Assembly: GCA_964187785.1 (NCBI GenBank)
Contig: OZ076409.1
Location: 47,556,001-47,620,000, forward strand
DNA from: Amphiscolops sp. MND2022
Taxonomy: Eukaryota
Direction: 5' to 3'
Length of the DNA: 64,000 nt
Shown here: positions 11,362-53,311 of the stretch, one piece after another
How positions within the stretch are numbered: the first letter of the stretch is position 1
Layout: each line of letters starts with the position of its first letter
Notes under the pieces: generated by a model
The model's database searches: none
What the model was told of the DNA's origin: nothing
Seen by the model: only the letters and a program-made list of their open reading frames with translations
Position numbers and translations under genes: made by a program

Positions 11362-11900
11362 TGTAAGAACTACAACCTGTGGTGTCTCTCAAATCTCCTA
11401 CGGACCTTGAGTCCTTCTTCGCGATCTTTATTTTAGGCCCTGGTGTGTTTTCCCTGTTCTCTTGACCATTAGGAGACATACAGGCCTCAGTGTCCCTGTG
11501 ACCTGTGGATGACATTGAGTTAACAATACTTTGAAACTCTGGAACAACTCTCTCAGCTATTGCAGTGGTAATAGCCCTGTTTATTTGATTATAAATCATG
11601 GACATCATTGAGTCACTTTCCTGAGACAACCTTAGATTAAACTCGTTAGAGAAAGTCTCAAAGGACTGTCTGACATCATTTTGCCTCAAAGAGTCATTTT
11701 CATATATAAATTCTCTGTACTCATTTCCATGGTACGTATTTGTATTTGCGTTCTCATGGGCTGATGACTGATCAATAGCATCAGTTAGTTCTCTTTCAAT
11801 GCGATTGTTATTCTCATTTCCCAACATTACGTCTAGGTATCAAAATCGGACATCATGTCCATCTCTCTAGATTTCCTGGGTTTTACCTTTTGTCTTCTTG
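11362..11900 (-). pseudogene. LTR-encoded gag N-terminal segment (element A)
   Basis: ORF 11267..11827 (NLRLSQESDSMMSMIYNQINRAITTAIAERVVPE) is homologous to the other LTR ORFs and is open to the LTR end. Confidence 0.7.
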
Positions 11901-12866
11901 TTGAAGGGATTAGAAATTGTTACAAGAGAAAAAAAATTATCTTTGGCTTGCAAATTTTGTGTGATATTACTGAGTAACTTTAACATGTAGGATCAATCAA
12001 AACTTTGTCCCCGGGACCAATTGTCCCGGCTATAAATATTAGATTCTACATGACAACCAATATTTCAACTGTCATATTCTAAAAATAGCCTTGAGGGCTT
12101 TCTAAATATAGTAACAGCTATAAATAGCAACAGTGACATCATTATGATGTAAGCAACTTCAAAGAACATTCCCGACGGTCAGCAGACTGATGATATGGCG
12201 GGAAGCCCGTAGGCCTACAAGACTGAGCAACAGCATACATATACAAAGTAAAGCAAAATACATGCATTTCAACACTTCATAAGATCACATGTGATGTATT
12301 AGTAACGCGCTATATTTCGTCAATAAAAGGTCTTTTGGAACTAAATGTCTATTTTTTGAACAATTAATGGTTTCTCTAGTATCCAAGTAGTAGCGCTTGT
12401 TAGTTGCGCCTTTAATTTGAAAGTGAACTCCGTGTCCAGTCGACATAATAGTACTCGCTTTTTTGTTGACAGGCGGCACATGGCCGTCTAGTCCATTGAT
12501 CAAAGCACCCCGTGATGTATTGAACAAAAACACCGGTATTAGAATACTGCACTCTGATTGTCTGATAGCTTATTCGGACTCGTTGTCCAAGGCGACAGGC
12601 AAGGAAACATTTGAACGCGTTTCCTATACCCGTACGCCTTGGTGTCCAATTTACTAACAACGTATAATTAGCGCCAGTATTACGTAATACTAAATCACGT
12701 TTTAAATGATATTTTGTATTAAAATATAAGAGCTACATGACTTCTACGGTATAAATACAGTTTTCTATTTGAAAGTTCTTATTTAAGGGGATTGTGTTGG
12801 GTTGAGCCTTCTGGTAATCGTGGCAGGTAGAGTATAGATTACCATCACTGGCGGACGCCTGGGACA
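11362..12866 (-). repeat. 3' LTR of element A
   Basis: On -, starts TGTCCCAGGC right after PPT AGGGGGAG and ends ...TTCTTACA. Terminal sequence aligns with 57181-57277 (CTGGTAATC...ATTxCxTCACxGGCGGxxGCCTGxGACA) and shares CATTTGAACGCGTTTCC. Confidence 0.8.
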
Positions 12867-13615
12867 CTCCCCCTGGGATTAACATGAAGCAGCCTTCTTT
12901 CGTCCCTTCTAAGAACGCCAGTCTTCTTGCATTGAATTGCTCTGGAGATTCCCCCAAATGGCTGTTTTGTGTAGGTAATCAATTACCGCTTCGTCCTGGA
13001 TCTGTTTGACTGATTTTCCACAAATTAGGCAGTTTGTGCAGCCCATGATGTAAGAGTTGTCATCGCCGCTAGGTTCTTTAAAGTGGATACCACTTGGACA
13101 TTGCTGATTGTTATTTGTAGTTGTCTCTGCCACTGCTCTGCAGTCACCTGTTGGGTACTTGTCCACAGCGGGGGTGACAATGGTGTATCCACCATCGGGA
13201 TCAATTGGCTACAAATATTGATTGGGTGTTCGTTTCTCAATCTCGGGTCCCTTGCTACTGGCCCTCTCCCCATTCCTAAGTCAAAATATCCGGCGTTGAA
13301 CATAGGTCCGGGGATGTACGAGAGCCTGGAATTCTCCGCATAATTTTCTTCCTGCTTGCTTGAGCATGAGGGTACTGGGATGCTCTCAGAGGCTGCCGGG
13401 AGCTCCATCTGCGTTTCTACACACTGTGCTAGCATGGCCACCTTATCATCGTCGGACAAACTGTCCAGATCGTCTACTGACGCACTGCTTGCACTTTCCA
13501 TCTCGTCCTCGCTGGATATATAGATTATCCCGTCTCCAGGGGCCGCTCCTGGAAAGTCTTCTGGGTAGTACTCAGGGGACTCCAGGTCGAAGTGACTTGA
13601 CAAGAACTTGTCCAT
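12733..13615 (-). pseudogene. Accessory sense ORF3 (SIM-like IIYISSEDE, CxxCxxCGK), frameshifted, C-terminus inside LTR
   Basis: ORFs 13025..13615, 12909..13166 and 12733..12957 join by frameshifts. Homologous to 32131-32795 (B) and 40920-41945 (C). Confidence 0.75.
12867..12874 (-). promoter_or_regulatory. Polypurine tract of element A
   Basis: AGGGGGAG on - immediately 5' of the LTR TG. Confidence 0.7.
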
Positions 13616-14916
13616 AATTATATTCTTAGCAATTTTGGAAAAGATTTATCAATTTTGAGTTTTTGGTTTTGAGAAAGCAACTGATCGCCGAGAAAGACAC
13701 TGAAACAATGGCGATCTTCCCCTACGCCAACTTGCGGGAGTTTCGTTTCAGTTTCCCGGGGTTTCGCGTTTCCCCCGATGGATAAATTTTCAATAACATA
13801 ATTCCTTCTTTATAAAATCTTTTAACTAGTCGCTCTGTCTTCTTTGATAATGCCGATCATGGTCTTGCTGGCTTACATCAACTCTGTCAACGCAACGCTT
13901 CCATATTAAGAGCGTCGCTTTAAGTGTTTATTAACACTCATCTAGCACTTGAGGGTTTCAAGAGGATGAATATATGGCAGTCCGCCACACCGTCCACCAC
14001 CAATCTGATCAGCCAATAGGAATGCAGCCTAACTCCCTCCAAGTTAAAATGGCTCCTCAAGGTCGTAAATCCATATAAGGAATAATGTAAAATGACCTTG
14101 AAACTAAAAAAAAAATAATAAAATCATGAAATAATTTATAAAAAGGTAAAGTTTCGAATTAAATAAATAGATGTAGATATCGCTGGCAGAGGCTATCCAC
14201 ATAAAGGCGTAAATTGTAAATAACTTTAAATTTGACTCCAAACTGTATAAGCACGAACTCCAATTTCGACATCTTGTCACATTACCGATTCAACTTCTAA
14301 TTCTTTACATTCAATTCCGCATCGTATTATTCTTTCTTCTTATCCAGTATTTAATCACTGTCGTATATACCATCATCAGTGTTTGTTCGATAATTAGTCA
14401 ATAAGTCTTTCATTGTTTTTATTTATATTCTTCTTTACCATCATCTTCTTCTTGGGACTCCAATTGCCCTCACTCGTGTGGGTTTTCTAGGATTTTACCG
14501 GACAATCGACATCCAGTCCCTTTCTTGGCATCCCCAGCTAGCTTAAATTTTCGTTCTTCCCCCAACGAGACAGATCGTCAGTCAAATTCTGGGAACACTC
14601 TGGTTGCTCCAGACAATTGTGCCCAAATTCCAAACATCTATATTGCAGCAAATTCCTTTCACAGACTTTTTGTCTTCTTTGCAACATCTGGATTAATTCT
14701 GATTGCTTCACAGTACCAAGTAAGTTGATGTTCTTCTGAGTTCGAACAAGAATTAGGCTTGATTAGGGCTCTAATCACTTTCGTAGACTTCCTGTCCAAG
14801 TAACACAAGTGTTCACAAGTGTTCAAACGAATCTACTTCCAGAAGATTTTCTAACGCGGTAAATGGACTCTAATTCAGGAAAGTTCCCGCTTGATCTTTT
14901 CTCTTTTTATTTAGAC

Positions 14917-17900
14917 ATGTCGTCAGAGAATATAACAGAAGAGAACACCTCATAGCTTCCTAGTACAGCAGAAAACGAACAGCCATCAAATCCAGCTTTG
15001 AATGCAATTACAGCAACACAAGCTAGCAATCAAGAAGCCTCTGGAACTAGTCGTGAAGCACCACTCCCAGTCCTTCCACAGAAGAAAATGTTAGTGCCTA
15101 TGTCGAACGGACACTGCAAGAATTAGGCCAACATCCAGAGGGGCGTTTCCTTTCGGCTCCAAAAGCTGAGAAGGAAATCCAACCGTTGGCACCAGGGGTC
15201 CCAAAAGCATCTGTGTCCGATGTAGTTATCGAGGCCTTCACTAGAATGGAAAGCATCCCGGATGATGAAATGGACATCGACAAACCTGATGATGAAATGA
15301 GTGAGACAAGCCGTTTCAAGCTCAAAGCAGACTTCTTTCAAACTGACACAAGCGAGGTCGAGGACTTGTACGATAGCGTAGGCGCAGACACTACGACCAA
15401 CAAGCCTACCCTGATAGCTCCAACGGTCGTTGATCCAAATGCACCGAGCCACGAAGACCCAGGTGGGGTCCAATTGGATGATATTGCCAGTGTAGTAACG
15501 AGGGCGCGCCTCCCAAAGGACACTTCTGCTCTCACCGTCCCAGGACGAGCCTTGCTCAAAAAATACTTTTCTGAAGCACCACCAGTTCGTTTGCCCATTG
15601 CCCATCGGACATTGGCCCTCAGTGAATCTCAAGTTCACACCTTGATGAAAGTCGTCTCGGACGAGGCCGATGCTTCGTCCCTCCGTACAGTTCAGGCATT
15701 GGTCAGCGAAACTTTGAAGGCGGGAGGACGGTTGTACAGCGGAGGACTCGTCCCTAGTGGAACTCGCCCAACGCGCAGCATTTCTGAGAGTTCTGGAGAG
15801 GACCTTAGCCGAGGAGGTCACACCACGGACGATTACTCCAGTGGGGCCCTCAGCTCTTATGATGAGTTTTTCGCGAGATTTTTAGGCAAGTCAAGCTACC
15901 CCTAGTGCCCGCCAGTGATCAGCCTTCGACGTCTGTCCCGACTAGGCCAGAAGGAATAGCACTAGTCCTGGGTTCACTGCTTCTGACTGTCCGCCACTGG
16001 CTCAGTTGCGTCCGACTCCAGAGGGGCCAAGTACCCCAAGGCCAGTTTGTAAGCGGAGGAGGATGGCTGGATCCACAGGCAAAGTCATAAAGGGGGCCAA
16101 TTTTGAGGGTATCAAACGGACCAGGACCTTCGTGACCGGACCCCTTGATCCCGAACAAAACAGGCATCAGTTCTATTGCCAAATATTCAAGGCCAACATA
16201 TCAATCTTTTCGAAGGGGGCACGCGAGATTGCCAGACACTATCAGTCCGAATCACACCTTCGCAAAGATCAACGTTGAAGATTTGAACATCTACGAAGTG
16301 TCGACAAAGTCACTAGGCAAATCAGACCGTGGCAAAGGTGAAGTCCGTGGCAAAGACGGACGGGTCTTAACTGCACTAGAAATGGAGAAAGAAAAGCCAT
16401 TATTTGAGAACGCCGTTTTAGTGGACATTGGGGACAAACACCTGTTCTACAATGACTACATAGCTGGAGGTACTTCATCATTTAGTTTTGAAGAAACCAG
16501 ACTCTGCACACAGTCTTCCTTAATCGGGTACTTTGTTCCTCGAGGTGGTGACGTCCTCGTCTTGCAGGCTTTGTGGAACCAAGTGAGCATTGCGGCCAAC
16601 CACAAAGAACCTTTCTCACCTCTTGACTGGGGAGCAACAACATTGACTGTAAATATCTACTTCCTTTGAAATGTAGACTCTTAGGTACCACATTCTTTTA
16701 TTGACACAATTAGTCCCTTTTGGTTCTAGACTATCTTCCACCACGACTTCCTCTGTGGCATGAGTGACATTGCACATCACGTTAACAACTCTGGCAAGTA
16801 CTCCCTCGAATTCGAGTCTGTGGACATGCAATGCGTGGTCTCTATTCGCTTCTGGAAAGGGGACCACCTGTCCACAGTCCGTCTCTTGCGTTACCGCCTT
16901 GCTAGTGAACATGCCGCAGGAATGTTGACTGCCGTAGCCCGAATTTTCTCTTTCTTGTCAGTACAGCCACAGATAGTCAGTGTGTCAGGGTGTCCTTCCG
17001 AGCTGATTCCAGTATTGGAGCAGTCTAAGCTCTTGACCAAGGGAATACAATACCCTTTCCGATTTGCCTAAAATTATGCATCAGCGCTGGGGAAGTGTCT
17101 TCGGGGGCATCAACTTCTTTTCCCAGCTTCGTTTCCTGATCACGATCCTGGATGGCTGTCAGGACCAAGTCTGGGCCACTCAGTCGCCAGAACTCAGCAA
17201 GGTAAATATAGACTTGTCCTCCTATGGGGGGAATGACTAGATGGTCACAATTTTGTTTTGATTCTTCCGTTTTGGCAATCTCAACTTGCAAGCTGGAAAT
17301 CACGTCCACACTCGCAATCTTATCAGAGTTTCTAGCTGACTGGAAGGCCGTGCGAGATTTCATGACGCGTATTGCTCCTACACAAGAGAACCAAGGTGTA
17401 CGGCATAGGCCCCAGAGTCAGGAGTGGAACATCATCGGGGATGAATTCTTTCATTTTAAATTTGAAGTCTTTGGCCGAATTGCCCGTGATTGTTAGTATT
17501 TTCCAACTGGTATAAACAAGTACAAATGTTAGCATGTGCTCATATATAAGTAGTTCTTGAATTGTGTTAGTAGGATTGAAGGTCAATGTGTCATGCGCTG
17601 GCATAATTTAAATGGTATTGTTATCTTTACAGACATCAAGTGCTTTGAGGGCAGTCTCTCACGACGAAAGGAATCCAGTTTCGTCACATATCGGGAATTA
17701 CGGCATTTCATTCGGAAACTGTGCTACCAATCCTTACTACCCAAACATTCGCCGGGTGAATCAGATTGGGCAAGGTTGTCCGCCTTGCAAGGACAAACCC
17801 TCACACAGCTCTCCAGTCGGGATTTCCTCCATCGGCTCAAGTTGAATGAGATCTAGATGCTGCTTGTCGGATTCGTGCTTAACAAGAAATCGATGATCAA

Positions 17901-18781
17901 CAGAGCGTGCATACAGACTTTGAGGCCGCTGTAGAGTCGATCAAGGAAGAATTCGTTGTTGAAGCACGAAATTATCTGGTCTTCCTGCTCGAGCGATTTC
18001 TAGTTGACATCACCTTCAATTCTGACATGGTCAATGGCATGAGTTGTTTCGACCCTGTGGTTCTTATATCAGTGCCATACGAGCAGGCTGCTCTATAATT
18101 CTCAACACTCTACTATTCTTTTAGTCTCCGCGAGTGGATGGTCAATACTCCTGAGGTCGAGGCCCGGGACGAGTACCTCGAGTTTCTGGACTTCTTCCGC
18201 AATAAGAGGACTTCCGAGATGCCCCTGAGACCTTTACTGACATGATCGAATTGCTTTCCCCTATTCCTGAGCTGAGATCTTGCAAACATCTCTTCTTTCT
18301 TTTTCAGCTAAGCTGTCTCTGTCTGACTTCGCAACTTCCCACTTTGCCTGCTTTTAGATTTCAAGGGGTAGACAGCAGTGATCATCGTTGTCGAAAGTCC
18401 GACGTCATCCTCCCTGCCCATTCGTATCTTTCCCATGTAGTTGGGTCAGTTGCAGTGTGTACCGCCGAAGCCTGGCTGGACAAATATCGAGAACTTGAAT
18501 CTAGCTTCGCTGAAGGGAATGTTGCTGGTAACCCCTGGGTCCATATAAATAGTTTCGGTGAACTCAACCTCCAAAAGGCTCTCATTTCTGCCCGAAAGGC
18601 TTTACGAGAGAAGCCACGATCCTCAAGTCGATCTCCCGCCTCATCAGTATCCAGCACTGGGGGGCGCCCAGGCAATCGGTGTCCGAGTAAGAACAAGAAA
18701 GGAGTGAAATTTGGAACTACCTCCTTTTCTGATACGCCCGCACCTAATGAAGCCTTGCTGCCAGGAAGCAGTGAAGACTAA
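14917..18781 (+). pseudogene. Antisense spliced accessory gene: acidic/disordered N-terminus, BED-like Zn finger, hAT-transposase-like body
   Basis: ATG after TTTAG|AC. FYCQIFKANISIFSKGAREIARHYQSESH; YSLEFESVDMQCVVSIRFW; EEFVVEARNYLVFLLERF...NGMSCFDP. Intron 16649-16729 joins ORF 16145 in frame to ORF 16760. Homologs in B and C. Confidence 0.8.
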
Positions 18782-19006
18782 ATGTACATAGTGTACATTT
18801 GTTTGGTAGCTGAATGATTTTGTATTCATTATGATATCTATGTCTCCTTTGTTTGTTTTATATTTTGACGTTATCTGTTGTATTTCTAGGCCGTCTGGCC
18901 TATTCGACATTGTCTTCGTTTGTGTATAGTCAGTAAAGTCCAGTAAAGAATAGTAAGTCAGTTTGTCAGTCTACAAGACTAACTGGACGCTAATTTACAT
19001 ATCTTG

Positions 19007-22000
19007 CTAGTATCTGTTTTCTTCAATAAAGTTGGGGTTGGGGTTAAGTCGAAGAACTTATTTCCCTCCTCTAAGGCTAGAAGTTTCTTCATTTTTTTCA
19101 TTTTCCAATATTCCGGGCACGGTTATATCTGCGCCTCCATTTGAAGCAATTTCCGTGTTTTCTAAATCATTAGTGACGTCTTTTTCATTTTGAGTCCCAT
19201 TAGTCGGTTCATTCAGTGGTGACGACAGGCCTCGGCTATTATCTGGCTGCGTTCGTATTTCATTCTCGTTGACGTCATCTTCGTTCATTCGTTCGTTGCA
19301 GCTTTCATTCTCGCTTGCGCTGCTGCGTTAATTCTCGATGACGTAATGGTCCAAGCTGTCTTTCTCGTTATCGGTCGGCCGGCATGCATGTGGCCACGTC
19401 AGTCCAATCTTCTTTTCTCGGTTCAAACAATTCGTATTCAAAGTCCACTTCCCATGAGATAGAGTACAAGTCGTCTTGTGGTATTACTATCTCATTGTCG
19501 GGTTGTAATTTTTCGCCATCATATTTGTCCTCTAAGGGGGCATTCGGTACAAATTTTTTATATCTAATACGATGAAGTGTTTGCGTTTTGTTTGTATTTA
19601 ATCGACGCACCATGTAATTGTCGCTGGACAGTACTTTTTTAACGACAAACGGGCCAATCCACCTGTATTCCCTGATTCGGATTTTTGATGCTTGACTATC
19701 CGGTTTAGTTTGTAGGACAAAACAGTATTCCTTGTCTCTCAGCGGAGCAGCTTTGGCCTTCCGGTCGTAATAGTTCTTGTATTTCGAATAGGACTGCATT
19801 AATTTCTTTTTGGTTTGATCAATGAGGATTTGTGTCCTCTGTTGTACTTCTTCCGCAAATTCCGTAGTTGGCAAGAAATTTTTATTGGGATTGTTTCCCA
19901 ATTTATGATCAAGGATGTTGAAGGGAATTCGGCCATGGAAGACTTTACTACGCTCACATCCAATACTGGAATGGTATGTAGTATTATAGTTGAGCACAGA
20001 CAATGGCAGGTATTTGTGCCATTGTCGTCGATATTCCCCTGAGGCCATTTTCAAATTGGTCTTCAGTGAGGCGTGCGTCCTTTCAAGCTTGCCCATTGTT
20101 TGCGGGTGCTTTGTAGTGGCGCATTTAAGTGTTATTCCCAAGATTTGAGTTGATTCAGCTATGATGGTCGATGTAAATGCGGACCTTTGTCCGTAATGTG
20201 AGTTGTCGGTAAATATGAATGTTTGTCATGATGTCTAATATCACATTGGCTACATTTGTTGCTGTCGCTTCACTTAGAAAGTAGGCAAATAGGTATCTTG
20301 ATAAGACATCAATGGCTTTCATTTTCTATCTGGTATCCGCTGCTGGTTGGTAGATTTGGTAATCAATCAATTAGCATGGCATCTTCAGGACCGAAGTCCC
20401 ATTCTGGCAAATTTACCAATTCAGGTGTAATGGTATTATTAGGGACTCTCTTGTCTCTGGCACACGTTTCACAGCCTTCGGCCCATTTCTTGACATGTTT
20501 TGCTATGCCAGGGTAGTCGTATGTTTGGTGAATTTCCTGTAGCATTTTAGAAGTGCCTGGATGTCGATGTGCCCTGCCATGTATTGCATGCATTAATTCT
20601 TTCAGCAGATGTTTGGGTAGTAAAATCTGGTGGTATTTGATTTGTTCTGTTTCATCGTAATACTGTCTTGTCACAATTTCGTCCTTGAGGACTATTCGGT
20701 CCAAATCATTCAAGTAATGTTTATATCGGATGCCCTGTTTTAGGATTTCTTCAGAGTATTCTTCGTTCTGAATTTTTGCTTTCAGCTGAAGCAAGATCGG
20801 ATCTTTGGATTGTTCTAACAGTATTTGGTTTGTTCTGCGTAGTTTCTGAGTGAAACTGGTAATTCGTCTATTACATTCTCAGAAATGGCATCGATTTGGA
20901 TGACGGTCTCCGCGACCTTGAGTCCTGCTTTTGATTGCCTTTTCTTTTCCCAAATTTGTTCTTCTGTTTCATTGTCTTCTTCGGTAAAAAACACTTGCTC
21001 TTCAGACACGCCGGCTGATTGGATATTGACTCCAATAGGTTTTGTTTCAACGTCTGCGCGTATTTTCAGGACCAACTTTTCAGTGGGATCCATTTCCATA
21101 CGGGACAGGTAGTCCGCTGCTGTATTGTTCTTGCCTGGAATATGAGCTATAGTGAAATTGAACTGAATGACAAAACCGCAAGCATTCGATAGTGGCGGTG
21201 GTATTATCTTGTGACCGATTTGTTATCCGCAAGGACAATTACTGGTTTGGGTGTTCCCCAGAGTATATGTCCGAATTCTGTGAAGGCGCATTATATGGCT
21301 AGGAATTTCTTCGCATGTATTGACATTTTAGGCTGGGAAGGAATAAAAGTTTCCGAGCCATAGGCAATAGGCGCATAGGATTTTTTGACTGAAGTATTTT
21401 TCTGGTTTGGATCGTCTTCGGTAAGAATAGCATATCCTGCTGCTATGAAGCTGGCATCTGTCATCAGGACTAGTTGTCGATTTGGCAGTGGCTGCCTCAG
21501 AGCTAGCTGGCTGCATCGATCCAAATCTCTATTGATTTCATTGAATTGTTCGACCAATTCTGTTGTTACTAAGACCTTCTTGTCCTTCTTAAGTAGTTGA
21601 AAGAAAGGAACCAGTTTTTCTGACATTCTCGTTATAGAGTTTCTGTAATAGTTGAAGAATACAAAGTATCGTTGCAAGGCTTTTTTGGATTGTGGGAATT
21701 TCGTTTTTTTCCTAGGAAAATGGTATTGCTTTCTTTTTGAGGCTTTACGCCCTCAGTGGTGATTGTGCTCCCTAGGAAGTCAATTTCAGTTGCTCCAAAA
21801 TGACATTTGTGCATGATCTATTTTGATCCTGCCTCCCTGATGCTTTCAAACGTTGCTCAGAGGTTTTTGATCAAATGTTCGGCATCGTTTGTCGCTATGC
21901 CAATATCGTCGACATATTGTGCGCACTGGTTGACCTTGATAACACGGTCCAAGTATTCTCTCATGAAACTGGAGAAGGCCAACAGGGCTCGACTGAGTCC

Positions 22001-22306
22001 TTGTGCCAATCTTCTGTAAGCGAATGTTCTGCTGGCAATGTTGAAGGCCAGCATTTCAATGGACCTTTGGTCCGCCATCTGAAGGCAGTGATACGCCTGC
22101 GAACAGTTTACGAAAAAGCTTTTTCACGGCCATGTGTTGCGCGGCGTCCGTCAGGGTACTGACTGGATGGTTGTTATTGATGTAGTCATCACAGATTAGG
22201 TTATTGATCTTCCTGAGGTCAACCAGCAGTCGTAGTTTTCCAATGGTCTTCTTTTGCGCAAAAATAGTACTGGCGTACTTTGAGAATGGTAATGTAGTTA
22301 TACCAC
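19007..22306 (-). pseudogene. pol: Gypsy pol (RT, RNase H, integrase), frameshifted
   Basis: LRLLVDLRKIN, CAQYVDDIGIA (RT). LMTDASFIAAGYAIL (RNase H). HGRAHRHPG...CETC (IN Zn finger). HPQTMGKLERTH (IN core). WIGPF (GPY/F). Confidence 0.95.
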
Positions 22307-31380: not shown

Positions 31381-31384
<4 letters not shown>

Positions 31385-31419: not shown

Positions 31420-31421
<2 letters not shown>

Positions 31422-41945: not shown

Positions 41946-42899
41946 TAATTCTTCCTCGAGATTGAATTATAGGTTATCCCTTGGTTGTGTATGGTTAAAT
42001 AGTTTCAAGAGAATGAAATTTATGAGTTTCGCCTATTCGAGGCTATTTCGATTCAGATTGAGGTTCGCTTCAGCTGAGTTACTGCTTCTGAATTTGTTGT
42101 AAGACCTTATGGCGATTGTATTTTCTGCTCCTGTTGTTTTCGGAAATTCCCGCGGAAAAATTGGGTGTCATGGGTTTTACCTCACCTACCTTCCTTATAT
42201 AGGGTTTGAGGGGTTACAGTCCGATAATTCAAAGAGATGCGATTGATCCGCTTCCGTCAACGAGGAGTAAAAAATTCAGTTACAAGTGTTTCTCTCGGAT
42301 TCATCTTGAAACATTAATCCTCTTGCTGCTCTTCACTTCCTTGAATCGATGTTTTAAAAGATTTACCAACACTTTTCTTCCTAATTAGGAAGGTAAACTA
42401 AGTTTACAATATAACTTTCACTCATGAGATTTTGAACAGGGTTTATTCATTCAAAATTACTTGACTACGTTTGAGGAAATAAATGAAATATTGCAAAAAA
42501 TTCTAATTACACAAACCAAATATTCAAACATAAACTTGTCTTTCCAGTTCATTTATGACCTCACCAGTCCTGCACTTAAAAAGTGCGCTAGGGACCTGTA
42601 ATTAGCAATTCATATCATACATTAGTTTCATAAGGAGCATCAAAAAATATACTTTTGAACCTCAGGAAATCATAATTCCCGGCGAATTTGGGTTTTATCA
42701 ATAAACACATAGGTGTATTTTCATGCTTCTAATGATGGTTATCTAATAGTTTACCATTTTGCTAAAACAAGTCCGCCTCAATCACATGTATTGCACATCT
42801 CGCCACGTAGTTATGTTTGACTTCGAGCTGGCAAGAATGAATTTTATTACGTTATCTCTTCATTGACTATTTCTTTCTTCACTGTCCACTGGTGTAATA

Positions 42900-43055
42900 A
42901 ATTCCGCATAGTACCGCATACTCAGCATCTTGTAATTCCGCATGACGCCGTATACTCGGCACTCGTAATTCCGCATGATGCCATATACTCGGAACTCGTA
43001 ATTCCGCACAATGCCGCATATTACTATATCTGGAATCTATTTTTCCGCATAATGT
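42900..43055 (+). repeat. ~33-bp tandem repeat (about 4 copies) rich in CCGCAT
   Basis: Unit approximately GTAATTCCGCATGAYGCCRTATACTCGGMACTC. Confidence 0.85.
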
Positions 43056-44001
43056 CATTTATTGAACTTGTAATATTGTGTAAAAACTGCATACTCTCTT
43101 CGTTCACTCTTGCTTGTAATGAGAATGGGTGATGAGTCATTTGTTTGTGTCAATTATGCAATCTTTCACTCTGGCAGAAGTGATTGACATTTAATCGACC
43201 AATCAGATTTGAGAACCACTCTATTTTCGTGTACGATATCTGTCACATTTTGCTCTTTTGCCTGTACTTGTACGCCACGCCTTTTCAATTTCATTCATAT
43301 TATTTTTGAAGGAGTATAGTCATAGTCCGTTTCTTTAACAATTATCTCTTGGAACTTACGCCCCTGATTTCTTCCAATCACGCATCAAATTTGTATTACC
43401 TTTATCCTGGATTGGATCACCGCTTACCAAATTTAAATTGTCGGTCTCCTTTACTTGGGATGAATTCTTCCAGTCGGAGAAAATCACGGAAGGACCAGAT
43501 TTCGAGACGAGTGCCAGGATCGTGGGGGTACAAATTTCCTACTGAGACTTCTCCAGGTTGGTTCAACTTTTGTTTTAAGTTTTAATTTGTAGTGAAATTT
43601 GTTTTGATTGTGAGATCATCATGCGGAGCTGGCCAGCCTTGGCAAAATGGAGTGACTAGTTCGCGTTAGTTAGGTTGTTTGATTTAGTGTGGAAGTAAAT
43701 TTGCCACACATTGATTTTTTGAAGCGCAAGTAACTTTGCAGTTTTTCACCGCGTCCGTTTTCAAAACTTATTTCGAGGCTACTTCCTGTAATTTTTTTGC
43801 ACTTGCTTCCGCTTTAAGCCTTTGAAGTTGTTTTAGTTGAACTTGGAGCGACTCAGACGTCACCAGCACGGTCACTGACAAAAGTTTACACGCCTCTACA
43901 AGCTGTTTCCCCCAACAAATCAGAATCTTCCCGAAATTTTACCAGTTCAGGAAACTTCCACAGGAAGTAATGAAGGAATAGAGCGAGTTCTTGCTACCAG
44001 T

Positions 44002-47000
44002 TTGGATGAGTCTGCGGGATCGGGACAACTTCCAATCCAAGATACCACCAATGGTTCTCTAGAGATCCCAACTGAGGAAATTGAATTGTCTGATAAGACT
44101 GTTACTGTGACGGAGGACAACAATCAGACTTTGTTGACTACCCCTGCACCTAACGTTGGAGAACAAACACAAGATATTTTTACCACTAACTCTACTCGCT
44201 TTACTGAATTCATGAAGATGGTCCAAGGGGATACCACTTCTAGTCCAAAACTGAATAAGCCTGATGTTTATCAACCTCTCAATTCTTCTGCCGGAGAAAA
44301 TCCAATCACTAACCCGACGGAAGAGGAAAATAAGGAAGACAATGTGGAGCTGCTTGACTCCAATGAGAGTAACCCTAATACTTCACCTGTCGGCGACTGT
44401 ATTGATTCCGAAGCAGAACCAGTGCAACTAGTCACTGTCACCCGACAAGAAGTTTTGGCACTTTCAAGCGTGTTGGACAACATTCCACGGACTGCCTTAG
44501 TGAGAGGGGACCTTGAAGTTTCAGACAATATTACCCTTACTGTTGTCGGACAAGTGGAGAATCCGCCGGTTCAAGATATGCAAAGTACTAGTCAAGGTGA
44601 ATCAACTGAACACCCTCCTGTTGGTTTGCGCCCGCAATCCAGTTCTGAAGAATTTCCATTGGCTCGAGGAAAAAAGCGAAGGCCTAAGTTTTCGCTAACC
44701 ACGGCCATGTTGAATAAACATCCAGTCGTACCTTACTTCGCCACTGGACCACTCGACAGAAGCAAGAATCCATACAAATGGTGGTGTCGAGTTTGCAAAA
44801 TAGAGCTGTCCCTCATGAGCAGAGGGGTTTTGGAGTTATTATCTTTCCCATTACAAAACTGAGGCTCATTTGACTAAAGAACATAGGATCCGCTTGGAGA
44901 CTCCTGGATTACCTCTATCCGACCAGGAGGAGAATGAATTGCGCGGGATAAGACTGCAAGAGGCAAAACGAAGAGCTAGAGAAGCACATCCCATTTTTTC
45001 CCAATTAGGTGGATGCCGGTTATTAGTTGGGCAGGAGCAGTTGCCAGAATTCAGCTCTGCTACCAGTCCTAGCGATAATGTTCTGGCTCAAATCTGTATT
45101 CTTGAGAACGGGTTCCGCAATGGTGGACGTGTAGAGGTCCTGCTGGGTCTCTGGGAGGATATGACACGGTTGTCCCCAAGTAGCAGCGCCCAAATTACTA
45201 CTTACAAGTGGAGCAAGCATCGCATCTATGTAAGTATTTTTCTGCTCCACTCTTAATCTACTCATGTTTAAGTTTCACAATTTTACCTTTTGTTTAGGCT
45301 ATCGTCACGTATATGTTCAGAGAAGTAATGCACTCCTGTGTCGTGACTACTGAAACAGCTGGAATTTGTTCTTTATCTTATGAGAGCTCCCTTACTAGAA
45401 ACTTCCTTTTCCTGAGTTTTTGGTCAGGAAACGTCTATTACCAAGTTTGTCTTGGATCCGGACCCCGTGGGTTACTGTTACCCAAAAAGCTTCTTTCTTT
45501 GCTCTCATCTTACTTCAGTTCATCAGAGAATCCACTATCTTGCCTTTGTCTTGTTAAATTTGACGAAAGATTAGCAACTTGCCTTAATCGATCGCTACAT
45601 GAAAAAGATCGTCCCATGGTTATCAACTGGTTTGGTTTCCACTGAGTTAGAGAAATGCCTTGCCATGCCAACATCCTGAACCCTTGAGCGACACAATTTC
45701 AGGACGATAATGGATTTTTTGCTCATGAAATTGAGAACAGCGCTGGATCAGGAATGGTTACAGTCGATTCCTGTGTTGCATTAGGTACATTTTTTTGTTT
45801 CACTCTATTCGCAATATGCTGATGATTATTAATATCCTGACTTCTTTCTTTTCAGTGCGTAACACACTTGACATACACTCTAAAGGAGGCTTCATCCAAC
45901 ATTGCCCTTTTAACTGCACATTGGGACAGGGTGTTGAATCATCTAAATCGAGTTTCCCGTTTGCCAACCTTCCGATACCACATGCGTGAGGTAATATTTC
46001 GCTTTAGGCGTCTTCCGAAGTCATTATCAATTCATCGATTAACCATTTCACTTTTAGCCCAGTTTTCTAGACGAGTGTTTCCGGCTTGATACCGCATACT
46101 TGGCCTGGCTTTTCGTCATCCGCTGGGTCTTGGACCACTGTTAGTATCCTTTTATCTTCCAGTTTTCACATATCTTGGCTTGCTAGTCCATTCCACTTGA
46201 TCCCGTTGTGCACTCATATCAATCATATCGTTTTTCATTGTAGTTTCACTTTTATATAGGTGTGGCTTGTGCTTTTAATTAGGTCTCGCTTCTTTGAAAG
46301 CCAATACATTGGAACCGCAGGATGGCGTATGTACGTCACCCTTTTTCCGTATGATACCGCATATGCGGCGTCCTTGTTTCCGCAGGATGCCGCATATTTG
46401 GGTGATAGGTAGATTGTAAAATAGCCAAAACCGTAGTATGCCGCATATTCTTTTTGTATATTCCGTGCTATACCGCATAGTGAGGTTATTGACACCCTGT
46501 CTAGGCAAGGCCTGTGATTTTTACTTTGCCGTTTTGAGTGGTTTTGTTATTTGTGTTTCAAAAAACTCATCATTTTCTGAAGTACAAACTGGATATGAAG
46601 CTGGGTTTCGCCTGTTTAACCAGTTTGCGGTGTTTGTTCACTCCGAGCTCCAAAGCATACTTCCAGATAATTTTCTCGGCAGTGTCTCTGACTGCGACAG
46701 CTATCTGGAGCTTGACTTAACTCAACCTGATCTTCCTTTCAAAAGTTGCGACGAGTTCACTTTGAATACTGATTTCCATGATTTAGTGACTTCAAGCAAG
46801 CTATCAAGACCCAGCAATTTTATCGAGCAGTCAATTGCCTTTTATAATGCGTTCTGTCAGATTCTATTGCAGCATAAGATCGCGACTTCAGATTTAATCA
46901 GAGGTTTATCCAGTTTTGATTCTGCTATGATGCTCAATGGTGAGGAGAAAAATTATCTGCCTGCAATTGAAATGCTGATAACTTATTTTGCCACACACAG

Positions 47001-47480
47001 CTGGATTACAGCTAGTGACAAGACAAAAGCTGTGAGCCAATAAAAATCCTTGGTTACAAATTTTCGTTCAAGTCATGATGATTGGTTTGGATTCCTTTGT
47101 TCCTGTTATTAATTCATTGTCGGCCAGAGCTTTATTGGGTATTTTAGTACTTCTGTCTCTGTTTACCACCAGAAGCAAAGATCACCAGTCAGTTTGTTGT
47201 ACCTATGCCGGAACTAGGACCCCACGAAGAGGTGTTTCACTCGTGTATTGCTAGTATTCAGATGGCTTACAAAAGTGTCCCGAACGTGTCAAGCCTCTTT
47301 CAAGACCCCCACTCGCTCAGTCAGGTGTTTCGTCTTATTGGACGAGGACGCGATTTACTAGACAATCGCAAATTTTCCTTTTGGAATTTCCTAAAAGGTA
47401 GCAGGCCAAGGCGTGTCAGGTTCCAGTCTAAATTGGAAAATGCGTATAAGAGTGCAGTTGTAGGGAGAGAAGAAGATCCT
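44002..47480 (+). pseudogene. Antisense spliced accessory gene of element C
   Basis: Acidic N-terminus, then FATGPLDRSKNPYKWWCRVCKIELSLMSRGVLELL; ICSLSYESS...FLSFWSG; FYNAFCQILLQHKI..SDLIRGLSSFD. Introns 45230-45297, 45785-45855 and 45991-46057 (GT..AG). Start position approximate. Confidence 0.8.
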
Positions 47481-50400
47481 TCCCATTCCGGACAAATAAG
47501 GTGTTCTGTCCATTGGAGATCATTGTTTATGCGTTTTGTTTGGATGCAGAGTTGGCAATTACTAACCCAATTTTGATGTATTTTGCCATACAAGGGTAGT
47601 AATATTTTTGTCGCGCTTCTTGAATCATTTTGGTCATTCCTGGGTGGTTTGAGTTATGACCATGTAAGGCCTAGCGAAATTCGTCTAGGAGTTGAATTGG
47701 TAGAAGGATTTGGTAATGAGCTATGCTTCCAATGTCTGTGTAGTATTTCCTTGTGAGAACTTCCTGTTTAATCTCTATTCTGGTTATGTTTTGAAAGTAG
47801 TGCTGATATCGGTAATCTGATGCCAGTTCATTTTCGTCAAAAGTGTTTCCTTCTATTTTTGCTCTCAGGTTTCTAAGGACTATGTCGTTGTTCTGATCAA
47901 GGCGGATTCTTGCATTGTCTCTGAATTACCCTGATGATACTGAGATCAACCATGATGTGGGTTTGTGAAATTGTTCTAGTTCGGAGATGGCATTTTCTAA
48001 GTCATTGTGTGTATCGTTTTGGGCTTGATTTCGAACGTTTTGTTTTCCTTCCCATTATTGATTTCAACAAATTCATCATCTGGAAGAACATAGATCTGTT
48101 CTTCTTTACAATGTCGGATGATTGACAATTCACATCGATCGCTTCCGTGTGAATATCATTGCGAATAGTCATTTCCGGTTTTTCGGTTGGATCGACTTCC
48201 GTTCTATATAAGAAGTCGGCAGCGGTGTTCATTGATCCAGCAACATGGGCGATCACGAAATTGTATTGTAAGACATAATCGCAGGCAGTCCAGAGTGCTG
48301 GAGGGATCATTTTTGTTTGGAAAAATTGGTTAACAGAACGATTGTCTGTGAACACGATTACTGGGAAGGTACTACCCCACATGAGGTGTCCAAATTTAAC
48401 AAATGCAAAATTTATGGAAAAAAATTCCTTTGCATAAATTGACATTTTTGTCTGTGTTGGATTGAATAGTTTTGAACAAAACGCTATGGGTGCATATGTT
48501 TTTCGTTTGGATTAGAGTTTCTGGTTTGGGTTGTCTACAATCATGATAGCATATCCTGCTGCTGTGAAACTTGCATCGGACATGACTATAAGTTGCTTGT
48601 TTTTCAATGGTTGTTTTAATGCTAACTGGCAAGAATTTTCTAGAAGTTTGTTGAGGTTTGTGAAGTCTTCTACCAAATTTGTCGGTACATTGAATTTGGA
48701 AGTTTCTTTGGGGAGTTTGAAGAACGGAGAGAGCCGTTCCGGAAGGCGTGGTATATAGTTTCGGTAATAGTTTAAAAATCCTATATACCTCTGTAACACC
48801 TTTTTTGATTCGGAAAAGCGAAGTTTTGAAAACAAATCCTTCACTTTGTCGGCTTCAGGGGTGACTCTTTGTGGTGTGATTGTACGTCCCAGAAAGTCGA
48901 CACTTGTTTGACTCCGAAGTGGTATTTTGACATGGAGAGTTTCAGCCCTGCGTATGCATTCAAAAACAGTTTTGATATTTGTACACAATTGTTTTGTGTC
49001 ATTTGCCGCTATGCCAATGTCCGCTTGGGCACGTTGGTCCGCTTTAATTGCTCTGTCCAGGTACTCTCTCATAAAACTCGAAAATGCAGAAAGTGATCTG
49101 CTGAGACCTTGGGCCAGACGATGATAAGCAAATGTTCGGCTTGCAAATTAAAGGCGAGCATTTGAAGTGATTAAATATCTGCCATTTGAAGGCAGTGGTG
49201 AGAATGGGAGCAATCCAGTTTGCAGAAAAGTTTTTTCCCTGCCATATGTTGGGCTGCATCCGATAGGGTGGATTCCGGATGGTTGTTATTGACATAGTCT
49301 TCAGTGATGAGGTTGTTGACTTTCCGTATGTCGACGAGGAGTCTGAGGCGCCCGTTGGATTTGCGTTGTGCAAAAATTGGCTGGCATTTTCGAAAAGTGG
49401 TAAGGTTGTGATGATACCGTACTTGTGTAGAAGGGCAAGTTCTACGGAGATATCATCCTTGAGTTTAATAAGATATGGCAGACTTTAGCTGTAAGCAGGT
49501 CTGTCATCGTTTGGGGTTAGTTTCACTTTAAATTCACAATTTATGCCAATGTCAAACCGGTGTCTGGCAAAAACATCGTGAAATTCAATGAGGATTTCTT
49601 CAATTGCTCGCTGTTCGTCTGGGCTGCGTGTTGTGTCGGTCCAGACGAAACTTGGAAGAAATTCTTTTCTGGAAGTTGTATTATCATGTGGGTTTATTTT
49701 CTCGAGTTCTTTGAGTTCGAGGAGTTCGTTGCAGATACGTTCCTAAATTGGAGTGTAGGTTGCTGGATCACCTGGTTCTTCAGGGGTATGGAACCAGTAT
49801 GTGTCCTGTTCTGAGTTTGATTTGGGGACTTTTAGGAGTTCATTCAGGTAGACTTCCGTTGTTTCCTCATGTTGATTCATGAAGGACAGTAACGCTGGGT
49901 CTACTGGCTGTATGCGTTTGATTTGCTCCGATGTCAGTATCTTGAAATCCGCTAAATGGTTATCAAGGGTTATTGTATATGGTAAATCAGAAAAAATAAT
50001 CCGATAGCATTGTTGTTGACGGTACTGAGTGATGCAGTGATGAAAATGCTATCATGGGTTTCAAACTGATGTGATGGGGTGACTATTCCAGTTCCGTCAT
50101 AATCCATCAGATAGGGCATTTTGCTTGCAATGGCGAGAGTGTCGCCTGGTTGTATGGTATATGTATCTTCAGCAAACAATGGTGTTGCTTGTCGTGTTGA
50201 TGTTTGAGTGTCAGGTTTGAGCTGCATTTAAAGATAGGGGAAGGTTGTGATTCCTTGGGTGACATCAAAAACTGCGTTGTTCCTGCGAAGGAAACACAAT
50301 CCGATTAACGGGTTTGGTAATTTTTCATGATGATGAAATTTTATTTCAAGATGAAATCAGCCACTTCAAATTCAAGTTGAACTGGGCCAATTGGGATTTC

Positions 50401-50700
50401 TAGTTGTCCATTGGCCACCTTAATTTGAAAGTTTGGTGGAGGACCAGTTTCTTTTATTGCTTCAATTGCTAGCGACTTGATATTTTTGAGGTTTTGCTCG
50501 GAGATTGCTCCGGTATCAATAAGACCATCAAGTGTGAGTTTTTCGAAGTCCATTGGGATGTAGTACATGTGGCGTTTTCTCTTCAATGTCAAAGAGGTTG
50601 AAATTGGGAGATATGACAAATTTCGTTCTTCGTCAAATTGTATATGTTCAGAGATGGTTGTTTTCATCATCGCAAGAAGATTTTAATGGGAGTTTTGTGG
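47481..50700 (-). pseudogene. pol: Gypsy pol (protease, RT, RNase H, IN Zn finger only)
   Basis: LDGLIDTGA (PR). MREYLDRAIKADQ...DFLGRTIT (RT). VMSDASFTAAGYAI and IVFTDNRSV (RNase H). NWVSNCQLCIQTK (IN Zn finger), truncated at LICPEW. Confidence 0.93.
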
Positions 50701-50949
50701 TGAATATCTGAGTTTGAGTTGGTTTTGGGGTGGGTTGGTTGTTTTCTGAAGTAGTTGTCTGGTGCGTCTTGAAGAAGTTCGTATAGTTCTTCGAGTGAAG
50801 TTGCCAGTGTTGATTGTTGAAAATTTTGTGTCGTTGAGACGGTGTCATAAGCTGGTATTTTTGTGGGTTTTGGGCTCAGATGATGCTGCCAGTCATCAGC
50901 TGAGTTTGGTTTTTGTGGTGATTGTGTGTAAAGGCATGGCGTTTCTAGT

Positions 50950-52630
50950 TTAAATCCTTCGATGAAGACTGCTGGTTTCGTTCTATTCTTGGTCCGATTG
51001 GCTTTTTAGCTCGCTTGTAATCTTCAATAACTTTTTTTGTGCTTCAGTTATTTTCCATTTTGGTGGTCTATTATCCATATTGGCACCAAAAAACAATCTT
51101 GTTCATTATGGCCCGGGGTTTTGCAACTGGGACATTTAGGTGCATCCGGGTCTTCTTCTAGTTTTCGCCGTTTGGCTAATTTACTGCAGTCGGTCATCAT
51201 GTAGCTGGCATCTTTGCAGTAACGACATTGGTCATTTTTGAGTGTTTTGCTGGGTACTGTTTTCGGAGTTTGTTTTTTGGTTTTGTCATTTTGTTTTCTG
51301 TTGGGTTTTCGGTGTTTTGTTCCTTTTCGGTAACGGTCATTTGAGTTTTGACACCGGCTTCGTCTGCCTATAGACCATTGAGTTCCATCTCTCTTTCAAG
51401 ATGTTTGACAATTTGGTCATATGAGCCGTTTTCCAGATAGGCTTGGTTGATGGATTTTTTGGGATGCGGTGGCATTTTAGCATAGAGTAGATTCTCTATC
51501 ATATGCTGTGCACTGTCATCGAAAGCTTTTTCGGCGTTTTCCTGCAAATCTTCAAGAAAATTGGGTAGTTTTTGATTTTCTGGGTCAAATGTTAGTCGAT
51601 CAAATCTATGTTTTGCCGAAGCGCTTGCTTCTGGTTTCACATACTTCCGGCGGAAGACTTTTAGGATTACTTCCAGTGTTGTTGTGGGTGTTCTTTGGAT
51701 GGTTTTGAAGATTTTTAGCGCCAGTCCTCTGAGATGTGCATGAAAGTGGTTAATCTTCATTTCTTCTGTCATATTTGGCTGCATTTTGAGGGTTGTGTGG
51801 AATAAATCCTCAAAATATTCAAATTTTTCATTCTTCTCGTTTTTTCCATTGAATGTGATTGTGATTTTAGGGTGAAAACGTGATTGTTGTAAGTTTTTAT
51901 TTGCTAGTTTTTCTATGGCCTGGGCAGTTTGGTTGACCGTGTCAAGTGGTTTTTTCATGGATGTGGAAGTGTTGCGGTCTGCGTGGGATCCTAAAGTATC
52001 CTTTAGAAGCTGGGTGTTTTGAGAGCTTTGTCAATGGAGTGGTCTGTTGGCGCCTGTCACCATGTGTAAATCCTCCTCATTGGATTCTTCGTTAAAGATA
52101 ACTGTTGCATCTAGGGTTGTATCATTTTGTTGTAGAGGTTTATCTGGATGCCTTAATTCTCTCATTTCTGAAGCTTTGAGGGGGATATCTTCGTTTTCAG
52201 AGTCTAGACTTTCATTATCAGATGCGTTAACTCAAATAGACCTCTTACCTCCTGATCCCGATGGTTGCATATTTCCCATTTCATTCATCTCTGATCGAGG
52301 ATTGATTGTCATAGATGTGCCTTTACTAGTTTTTATTTCCATCAGAATCGCATCTAATTTGTTCTCCAATTCCCCTCGCATTTTAGTGATTCTATCGGTG
52401 CTTTTCTGTTCAAAAATCTCGGTTCAGGTTTGGATTTCATTACTGACTTGGCTAGGTTCAACTAGTCTGGGTCCCAAATCAACTTCACCTAATTTTTCTT
52501 GTTTTTGCAAATTAACATTAGTTAAAGTTTCATCACCTTGGCTAGGAGTTTCAACACATATTTCACTTGTTTCTCTCTCCGGGGACGGAGTCTCTAACCT
52601 TCTGGATCTTCGATTCCTCCTGTTTCCTAT
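50950..52630 (-). pseudogene. gag: gag of element C, starting inside the 5' LTR
   Basis: One frame (with isolated stops) runs from the LTR (NRRNRRSRR) through EEDLHMVTGANRPLH*QSS into FNGKNEKNEKFEYFEDLF...HLRGLAL (capsid-like). Degenerate CxxC knuckles at ~51230-51090. Confidence 0.85.
52045..52062 (-). promoter_or_regulatory. Putative primer-binding site of element C
   Basis: TGGTGACAGGCGCC immediately after the 5' LTR end (...TTTACACA). Primer tRNA not identified. Confidence 0.55.
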
Positions 52631-53311
52631 TTTGCTCAAGAGGAAAATTGGGTTGAAGTGCAGAAAGAGTTTGAATTTGTTCGTCATTGTTGTGAAAACA
52701 ATTCGGGTGAAACAAGGAGTTATCAAGGAAACTGCTTTTGCAGTGTTTTGGTTTACTGTTTCAAAGCAACTGTCTTTGATACCAGGTATATATCATATGA
52801 CGCATATACGTCATCCAGTGTTCCGCATAGTGACGTATGATCAACTCTTATTAAAAGCACCGAAAATGCATGTTATAAGCACAAATGCACAGTGTGACGC
52901 ATATACGTCACTCGGATTACCGCATAATGACGCATACTATCAACACTAAACTCACATATTAACGTGTCATTGACAATCTGTTCACAATATTAGTTCAAAG
53001 ATAGCATCAAACCATTCTAAATCCAAAGTTTGATATTGCATATGATCAATCATGTCAACAAAAGATGAAAGCATCAATGTTTAGGCACTTGTTAAATTAT
53101 GAGCGTTGCACTATTAAGACTAAAATCTTACATGACTTTTCCGAAACACGAACTGAAAACTAAAGCAACATGAAAAGTAAAAATAGAGAAGTTTCGGAAT
53201 GTTTAAGAGTTTCAGGTCTTTAAGTTGCTCGTCTTTCCTTTTGGAGATGATGTACTGTTCTCGTTTAGGGTTGTTGCCCAACAGCTCCAGCACAACTGTG
53301 GGGTTGTGACA
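52063..53311 (-). repeat. 5' LTR of element C
   Basis: Direct repeat of 39518-40965, about 200 bp shorter in the middle. Confidence 0.9.

Follow-up and report, generated by a model that had tools for sequence, protein, structure and literature searches.

An antisense, probably transposase-derived gene carried and exchanged by Ty3/gypsy retrotransposons of Amphiscolops sp.

Why should a long terminal repeat (LTR) retrotransposon carry a large, intron-bearing gene on the strand opposite to its own? The question is raised by a 64,000-nucleotide stretch of contig OZ076409.1 of Amphiscolops sp. MND2022 (hereafter the window). Self-comparison of the window revealed three decayed Ty3/gypsy elements, A (minus strand, 11362-22302), B (plus strand, 22302-~32800) and C (minus strand, 39518-53311). 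In each of them pol is followed by an antisense gene and then, past a spacer of 1-2 kb, by a sense open reading frame (ORF), ORF3. The module that a preliminary description of the window had reported for A, B and C, with its orientations, was thus seen again. All three copies contain stops and frameshifts. The antisense gene of A corresponds to that of B in each exon (tblastn, 31-55%), and that of C is far more distant from both, with the zinc finger and other motifs in common. ORF3 of A matches ORF3 of B, and the C-type ORF3 has the same C-terminal domain.

Accessory genes carried and exchanged by a gypsy lineage

The genome assembly (1.07 Gb) was searched with the antisense-gene proteins of B, C and A. 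Each query gave at least 150 matches, with thousands of first-look candidates, and many of the matches are open frames of 450-830 codons. Eighteen copies, picked for long antisense frames, were fetched; their typical length is ~15-16.5 kb. A direct LTR match between the outer stretches was found in 15 of the 18 copies and was absent in three. In 13 of the 18, the LTR pair is 97-100% identical, has TGT...ACA ends and is flanked by a 5-bp target-site duplication (TSD). The primer-binding site (PBS) is complementary to the host tRNA-Leu(CAG). The gag frame starts ~190 codons within the LTR and ends on AAAAAAC or TTTAAAC (9/9 copies checked), which suggests a -1 frameshift. The order along pol is protease, dUTPase-like segment, reverse transcriptase (RT), RNase H and integrase; the Pfam domains found are RVT_1, RT_RNaseH, Integrase_H2C2 and rve, and the best PDB match is Ty3 Gag-Pol (E 9e-46). 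The dUTPase-like segment, between protease and RT, was matched in copy L015 (pol residues ~80-160, Pfam E 0.011), and PF00692 was matched on two database relatives (P0179 and P0210). The pol relatives listed, at least 120, are all unnamed. Judged by their domains and termini, the elements are Ty3/gypsy (Metaviridae) LTR retrotransposons of a recently active lineage.

Carriage of the module was examined at 150 loci selected by the integrase tail alone, a sample biased to B relatives. At 106 of these loci, an antisense zinc-finger match lies 3.2-5.8 kb downstream on the opposite strand, and at none on the same strand. From the remaining 44 loci, 40 were fetched and four were left unfetched; with 6.5-8 kb read at each, the antisense gene was found in 38 and ORF3 in 34. 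The antisense gene therefore lies downstream of pol on the opposite strand at 144 of the 146 loci examined, the two exceptions being a deletion that joins pol to the LTR and a short stretch within a tandem pol duplication. In two much more distant subfamilies, reached with outside relatives as queries, the integrase also converges on the antisense gene (2/2 checked). The distance between the converging antisense gene and pol is 168-264 nt. Since the layout recurs in at least 144 of the 146 pol-selected loci, chance is excluded. These results show that the accessory genes are vertically carried with the retrotransposon, as the preliminary description had proposed. The alternative it had named, an independent recent insertion of the module, was rejected on the basis of this carriage and of the module edges, where no terminal inverted repeat (TIR) longer than 10 nt was found in 4/4 copies checked. 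Around the antisense gene, the longest exact inverted match is at most 10 nt in the same number of copies, no dedicated search for an 8-bp TSD having been made.

Two loci with rearranged modules are worth recording. At L141 (G000:C9:20040473-20046972) the pol tail is fused directly to the LTR and both accessory genes are deleted. At L174 (G000:C3:27214461-27222460) the antisense gene has its last exon amplified, and several rearranged copies of this exon, in tandem, surround an assembly gap.

The GT-AG intron positions of the antisense gene are conserved across the A, B and C types. For intron 1, GT and AG fall at the identical codon boundary in 18/18 copies, and the acceptor of the last exon is conserved in all 15 copies where it was located. 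By predicted splicing, five exons close the frame in copy L015 (1,195 codons). Outside relatives without intron 1 fuse the same two exons in frame. Four intron-less proteins (P0002 and the distant relatives P0058, P0067 and P0143) were considered as complementary DNA evidence and rejected because they run into intron 2; they are therefore genomic variants lacking intron 1, and they support the in-frame junction of exons 1 and 2. In a separate case, copy L046, gag is fused to a shortened pol, and the intron 1 of its subfamily, of 84 nt, contains no stop and keeps the reading frame (open frame of 827 codons). Introns antisense to the genomic RNA escape splicing before reverse transcription. Since those of the antisense gene lie opposite the genomic-RNA strand, they survive each round of retrotransposition.

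Selection was estimated from nonsynonymous (dN) and synonymous (dS) divergence by the Nei-Gojobori method, in which pairs saturated at silent sites give no ratio. The dN/dS of the antisense gene was 0.04, 0.05 and 0.06 in three diverged, unsaturated pairs and 0.20 in one young pair. The integrase gave 0.02-0.15. For ORF3, most of the measurable pairs fell at 0.05-0.35, and two young ones reached 0.49 and 0.65. The antisense gene is under purifying selection: its dN/dS lies far below 1, and the neutral evolution that had been suggested as a check on the module is not what was found.

The antisense gene is exchanged as a whole cassette between backbones. In four pairs of elements (L012/L015, L018/L027, L040/L049 and L058/L061), the LTR, ORF3 and pol are mostly 88-100% identical and the antisense gene is 44-81% identical. 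In such exchange pairs, identity falls in the middle of the spacer and returns near the pol stop. The cassette dS in L012/L015 is 1.3, against 0.011 in the integrase; over L012/L015 and L046/L052, it is 1.3-1.7, against 0.01-0.08 in pol. The integrase stays 95-100% identical while the antisense gene is swapped. Since the exon-1 and exon-5 types always agree, the gene moves whole. Cassettes less than 85% identical were found in 9 of the 59 element pairs with matching flanks. Types defined at 90% identity were counted in the 38 of 51 elements with all three markers, and 5 pol-tail, 15 antisense and 10 ORF3 types occurred in 20 combinations; the pol marker is short and conserved, so that these counts overstate the contrast, and the silent-site difference is independent of that marker. 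Trees of short segments (FastTree, with L043 excluded) agreed on a deep split between C and A/B and were in conflict within the clades.

It is worth noting that the swaps may have another cause. Neutral modular recombination, in which whole-gene swaps alone survive, is a somewhat unlikely account, and it concerns the cause of the exchange and not the function of the gene. ORF3 and pol segments recombine as well (L046/L052, L024) and the breakpoints lie in conserved flanks, as neutral exchange would have it. The saturated silent divergence on near-identical backbones is difficult to reconcile with it, as are the 15 antisense against 5 pol-tail types in the 38 elements, a contrast inflated by the short, conserved pol marker.

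The module had been described as a two-gene unit. Both genes are indeed present, but they are no fixed pair. ORF3 is less than 85% identical in 46 of the 97 pairs whose antisense genes are at least 95% identical, and one ORF3 type was found with seven antisense types. A lock-and-key relation between the two proteins was largely rejected, since the two genes reassort independently. The same reassortment makes it highly improbable that the genes form a divergent toxin-antidote (addiction or drive) pair favouring its carriers. Such a pair would account for the divergent two-gene layout, the selection on both genes and the many deep alleles, but searches of ORF3 in Pfam, ESM Atlas and PDB sequences found no toxin-like domain.

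ORF3 itself encodes 260-380 mostly low-complexity residues and a conserved C-terminal domain (CxxCG...Y...ET...R.RAF.DG), which extends into the 3' LTR. Of the 12 sequences that extend to the N-terminus, 10 have hydrophobic-then-acidic motifs (IIYISSDE, IIDVSSDS and others); we take them to be putative SUMO-interacting motifs (SIM-like). No transmembrane segment was found in 14/14 sequences (maximum 19-residue hydropathy 0.87-1.61) and no env family was matched in Pfam, and ORF3 as an env gene was rejected on these grounds. Neither Pfam nor the PDB sequence search gave a homologue, and ESM Atlas gave no usable one. By these sequence comparisons ORF3 is an orphan.

Origin and possible role of the antisense protein

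The antisense protein is laid out as ~400 low-complexity residues, a basic PPRKKRK resembling a nuclear localization signal (NLS), a C2H2 finger, an alpha/beta domain and a long helical region. In the finger, CxxC and one His are invariant and a further His is near-invariant; its match to the Spin-doc zinc finger is weak (E 0.11), and one of the HHalign matches given below falls on it (E 0.029). We consider it rather likely that the gene was derived from a hAT transposase. The predicted model of exon 2 has an RNase H fold. Hermes transposase (8edg_A) was retrieved among 48,161 chains at rank 16 for its residues 141-265 (Z 6.2, root-mean-square deviation (rmsd) 5.2, 115 aligned) and at rank 4 for residues 367-609 (Z 5.2, rmsd 6.3, 174 aligned). 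HHalign comparison with a 56-sequence alignment of DUF4371-type hAT proteins gave three collinear matches (E 0.029, 0.0013 and 0.031), which fall at the finger, the first catalytic strands and the C-terminal helices; reversed and shuffled controls gave E of at least 0.11. The ten rows listed by ESM Atlas were hAT-related (DUF4371, ZBED5/FAM200, ZBED1 and DUF659 clusters) or unnamed, and the top score, 0.85, lies under the tool's 0.9 line and is taken as a lead only.

There is another possible interpretation of these similarities, namely that the protein is an unrelated zinc-finger and RNase H-fold protein, such as a nuclease or an RNA-binding suppressor, whose fold resembles hAT transposases by convergence. 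Argonaute, Pelota and integrases score equal to or above Hermes for exon 2, and no match is significant at the sequence level. Yet Hermes is the sole entry listed for both models, with the two halves in the right, collinear order and with the longest alignments; the HHalign matches are collinear, and the language-model search agrees. We regard convergence as improbable.

The protein is not an active transposase, since the catalytic positions are unconserved. In 46 aligned rows, neither of the RNase H catalytic positions shows an aspartate: the position of the first D is most often E (21) or T (10), D not being among the commonest residues, and the strand of the second D reads S-G-C. There is no conserved glutamate at the position of the ERSFS motif, and the motif itself is not present. 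A profile search with the protein retrieved 1,039 clusters at 50% identity; ten were looked up and none is named. Two such clusters are only 24-35% identical to anything in this genome, and relatives therefore exist elsewhere. No relatives were found in viral and metagenome contigs, no longer homologue was found for exon 5, and the PDB sequence searches with the accessory proteins gave nothing useful. The antisense gene probably started out as a DNA-transposon insertion that has long since been domesticated.

The host also contains several hAT families (L095-L108) with long open transposase frames of 600-700 residues, some of them in identical-scoring copies; none of these families is a close relative of the antisense gene. 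A search of the host genome for PF14291 gave no match, and its control was silent too.

What, then, might the protein do? Tentatively, we favour the reading that the protein comes from a captured transposase, is catalytically dead and has been kept as a DNA-binding regulator in the nucleus, probably with an anti-silencing role like that of VANC or TnpA. A hAT gene would have been captured in antisense orientation, hence the persistence of its introns; the DDE residues are lost, and the nuclear signal, the zinc finger and the transposase scaffold would have been kept. Conserved motifs in the spacer suggest a bidirectional promoter there, from which this gene and ORF3 would be transcribed in opposite directions. 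The spacers of the A and B types have a common block of CCAAT, AAAATGGC and CCATATAAGG, the promoter names of these motifs being our assumption. The protein would most likely bind short sites in the non-coding DNA of its own element. Candidate sites are seen in the C type, where CCGCAT arrays comprise 5-8 copies per spacer (6/6 spacers) and 4-6 copies in intron 4 (5/6 copies of the element). Few occur in the exons or in pol, copies are present in the C-type LTRs as well, and the rest of the window has 0.16 per kb. Through such binding, the protein would keep the element transcribed despite host silencing, as VANC and TnpA do in plant DNA transposons. Template switching between co-packaged RNAs could swap the whole antisense gene among backbones, and long-diverged versions of the cassette are retained; the mosaicism is observed, and selection would be its cause.

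In the weakest step of this mechanism, ORF3, disordered and with SIM-like motifs, would probably act on SUMO-dependent silencing. SUMO reportedly has a role in silencing guided by PIWI-interacting RNA. A wider version, in which a dead hAT recogniser and a SIM-bearing ORF3 form a two-gene counter-silencing unit against SUMO-dependent silencing, with cassettes traded in an arms race with the host, seems doubtful to us. Independently of this, a SUMO-like gene of the host was found at L189 (2572-3321), in two exons split by an intron.

Several observations weigh against the regulator reading. On the side of its origin, each hAT signal taken alone is weak. In HHalign, the hAT strands were missed when the exon-2 alignment was used by itself (E 0.12), Foldseek returned nothing at E <= 0.001 for the antisense models, and the VIA Z-scores for Hermes are within the range of common folds. 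Pfam gave neither a hAT domain nor any significant family in the antisense protein, and hidden Markov models of the antisense exons did not recognise the host hAT ORFs. On the side of its function, a swap of the gene leaves the core promoter block on its backbone, and the zinc-finger region is well conserved within clades; family-specific DNA recognition therefore fits less well than it does for VANC. No comparable motif arrays were found in A- and B-type elements (7 copies in one scan and 9 in another). The CCGCAT motif is identical across six diverged C-type subfamilies, so that its reader could be a host factor. The SIM-like motifs of ORF3 are short and putative, and occur in 10/12 sequences.

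Two further roles were weighed. First, the dead transposase, the antisense RNA acting on the genomic RNA, or both, could be a self-repressor that limits copy number or cell range, and divergent cassettes would escape the repression exerted by relatives. The predicted antisense transcript has a sequence complementary to that of the genomic RNA and approaches pol tail-to-tail to within 168-264 nt, and a cassette dS of 1.3-1.7 against a pol dS of 0.01-0.08 would abolish RNA pairing between subfamilies; antisense regulation has been discussed for plant elements (PMC7264820). The strong constraint at the protein level, however, argues that the protein matters, and the family, with its thousands of first-look candidates, is both young and very abundant. 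Self-repression is in our view unlikely. Second, the protein could be a cofactor of integration or nuclear import that, within the pre-integration complex, binds the DNA of the LTR or of the element and anchors it on chromatin. We judge this to be improbable, at about the level given to convergence of fold above. The transposase scaffold, the NLS-like PPRKKRK and the CCGCAT copies in C-type LTRs would suit a cofactor, and such a role has been proposed for plant antisense ORFs (PMC7264820). On the other hand, the TSDs show no evident common target sequence, and the gene swaps freely on backbones whose integrase is 95-100% identical, with no sign of co-evolution.

The three decayed elements in the window

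Element C is the most complete of the three. Its LTRs (3' LTR 39518-40965 and 5' LTR 52063-53311, both minus strand) have TGT...ACA ends and are 94.5% identical (1177/1245 aligned positions), with a 201-nt deletion in the 5' LTR relative to the 3' LTR. The duplication GTCCT flanks them on both sides (39513-39517 and 53312-53316), and the position of the C module between two LTRs with a TSD, as first reported, was reproduced. The decayed ORF3 (40930-41985, minus strand, ends approximate) contains the SIM-like IIDVSSDSGDE. The spacer (41986-43850) has a CCGCAT tandem array at 42900-43020, and intron 4 of the decayed antisense gene (43850-47481, plus strand, start approximate) has a further array at ~46315-46450. 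A ~1.7-kb deletion at 47481 has removed the core of the integrase together with the end of the antisense gene. The remaining pol (47481-50950, minus strand) comprises protease, dUTPase-like segment, RT, RNase H and the start of the integrase. The gag frame (50945-52631, minus strand) starts ~190 codons inside the 5' LTR, reads through the PBS and ends at the slippery site TTTAAAC. The PBS, TGGTGACAGG... (52051-52062, minus strand), complements the 3' end of the host tRNA-Leu(CAG).

The GTCCT of element C equals the five bases that adjoin the 3' LTR internally (40966-40970); this is probably a coincidence, since intact C-type relatives have other TSDs. Elsewhere in the assembly, G000:C8 holds, from 35,595,871, a large array in which several hundred tRNA-Leu-like 3' ends follow one another in tandem every ~296 bp, of the tRNA type that matches the PBS of the element.

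Element A retains the 3' LTR alone (11362-12866, minus strand; TGT...ACA, 71-75% to the LTRs of the intact relatives L045/L051) and is broken off inside RT at 22302. The LTR holds the first codons of gag and the end of ORF3, and a polypurine tract follows at ~12867-12877. The decayed ORF3 (12733-13615, minus strand), with SIM-like IIYISSEDE and CxxC, extends into this LTR. In the spacer (13616-14916) lie the conserved promoter-like block (CCAAT, AAAATGGC, CCATATAAGG) and a probable intron of the 5' untranslated region. The decayed, hAT-transposase-like antisense gene (14917-18781, plus strand) has coding exons at ~14917-16648, 16730-17201, ~17274-17491 and 17633-18781, and the truncated pol (19007-22302, minus strand) contains part of RT, RNase H and the integrase.

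Element B starts inside RNase H at 22302, and its LTR and gag are absent from the window. Its 5'-truncated pol (22302-24955, plus strand) contains part of RNase H and the integrase, and is followed by the decayed antisense gene (25125-31152, minus strand) and by a decayed, 3'-truncated ORF3 (32122-32795, plus strand) with SIM-like IVCLSSDEEE and CxxC. Exon 1 of the antisense gene is split by a later, TA-flanked insertion of ~2 kb (28647-30674), which does not belong to the module. Its ~17-bp inverted ends are imperfect and its GTGGAATCCAC arrays subterminal; it is probably a non-autonomous Tc1/mariner-like element. The GTGGAATCCAC arrays were considered as motifs of the module and rejected as part of this insertion. 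At 22302, A and B abut in inverted orientation inside pol, both truncated, possibly through a rearrangement between two related copies.

The LTR-bounded layout of the preliminary description is therefore met with in C, but not in A, with its 3' LTR alone, nor in B, with none in the window. Tail-to-tail convergence on pol holds in A, B and the intact relatives, but not in C, where the deletion at 47481 intervenes.

Other repeats surround the elements. Short repeats of one dispersed family, with inverted copies (1000-9600, 37900-39030 and 55400-58850), are probably fragments of a non-autonomous DNA transposon. Three short, related coding-like fragments of a repeat (9035-9337, 11089-11385 and 55548-56009; tblastn 34-39%) flank A and occur elsewhere. 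Just beyond C lie a tandem array of 15-bp units, which has an inverted partner, and a near-perfect hairpin of 64 bp (53490-53719, 54073-54203).

Comparison with known systems

No LTR element whose antisense gene has introns and derives from a transposase was found in the literature surveyed, for which supplements and most subscription papers were outside the scope and an unannotated entry in Repbase, Dfam or GyDB may exist. The earlier suggestion that the layout may be undescribed agrees with this result. In the accessible part of one genome paper (PMC9911081), only LTR abundance is reported. The lineage is unusual among LTR retrotransposons with additional ORFs in the probable class II origin of its antisense gene, in its retained introns and in its cassette exchange.

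The closest layout is that of the plant Retand/Tat elements (TRP28/PF04195; Grande gene23, RIRE2) and of fungal Boty, in nearly all active copies of which an antisense ORF lies between pol and the 3' LTR. Antisense ORFs are described as typical of plant Retand elements and as present in Boty, with origin and function unknown, in the accessible parts of PMC11963269, PMC7264820 and 10.1101/2021.04.13.439636. An own promoter, a proposed nuclear or DNA-binding role and family-specific tandem repeats are reported for them and would have their counterparts here, and for the plant ORFs a nested-transposon origin is judged unsupported, for lack of similarity to other transposable elements (PMC11963269 and PMC7264820, as far as accessible). 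Unlike Retand/Tat, the present lineage has a hAT-like protein of ~1,200 residues, conserved introns, a second, divergent gene and cassette exchange, and its antisense protein did not match PF04195 (TRP28) in the Pfam search. The accessible text of PMC7264820 and PMC11963269 leaves open where the antisense accessory ORFs of LTR retrotransposons come from and what they do; here a transposon origin appears traceable. The lineage also shows introns persisting within a retroelement.

Among animal gypsy elements, extra ORFs after pol are found in bdelloid Vesta, Juno and TelKA, planarian Burro, C. elegans Cer1 (CERV) and errantiviruses. Extra ORFs and a dUTPase are described in rotifer and planarian elements, the dUTPase-like segment lying between protease and RT as here (PMC5408684, PMC6431247). 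The extra ORFs are env, GDSL, DEDDy or similar, and no antisense gene is mentioned in the accessible parts of these two papers. ORF3 differs from them in having neither a transmembrane helix nor a Pfam match.

With hAT transposases (Hermes; DUF4371/ZMYM1-type) and their derivatives ZBED1 and FAM200/GTF2IRD2, the antisense protein appears to share its layout, in which a zinc finger and a helical domain precede the RNase H core with its helical insertion, and a C-terminal domain comes last. It differs from them in having no DDE triad, no TIRs and a long disordered N-terminus, and in residing inside an LTR element and not in the host gene set.

The functional parallel is with VANDAL/VANC and Spm/TnpA, which likewise have an intron-bearing accessory gene and short motif arrays in introns and upstream DNA, in our lineage in the C type only (10.64898/2026.08.24.746577, PMC5735166). 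According to the accessible text of PMC5735166, the motif arrays to which VANC binds lie in introns and in upstream regions. In that of 10.64898/2026.08.24.746577, TnpA is transposase-derived, as the antisense gene probably is; domesticated transposases often lose DDE and catalytically dead ones recur as regulators, and the whole words LTR, retrotransposon and gypsy are absent. VANC and TnpA belong to plant DNA transposons and arose from the element's own transposase or from an unknown source, whereas here a class I element would carry a class II-derived gene. The hundreds of young copies are natural backbone-by-cassette combinations, from which the effect of a cassette on expression or silencing can be read in host sequencing data. 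If the anti-silencing role is true, sequence-specific counter-defence would extend from plant DNA transposons to a retrotransposon widespread in a 1-Gb genome, probably that of an animal, and a retrotransposon lineage would have domesticated a DNA transposase for its own use, as a VANC-like system.

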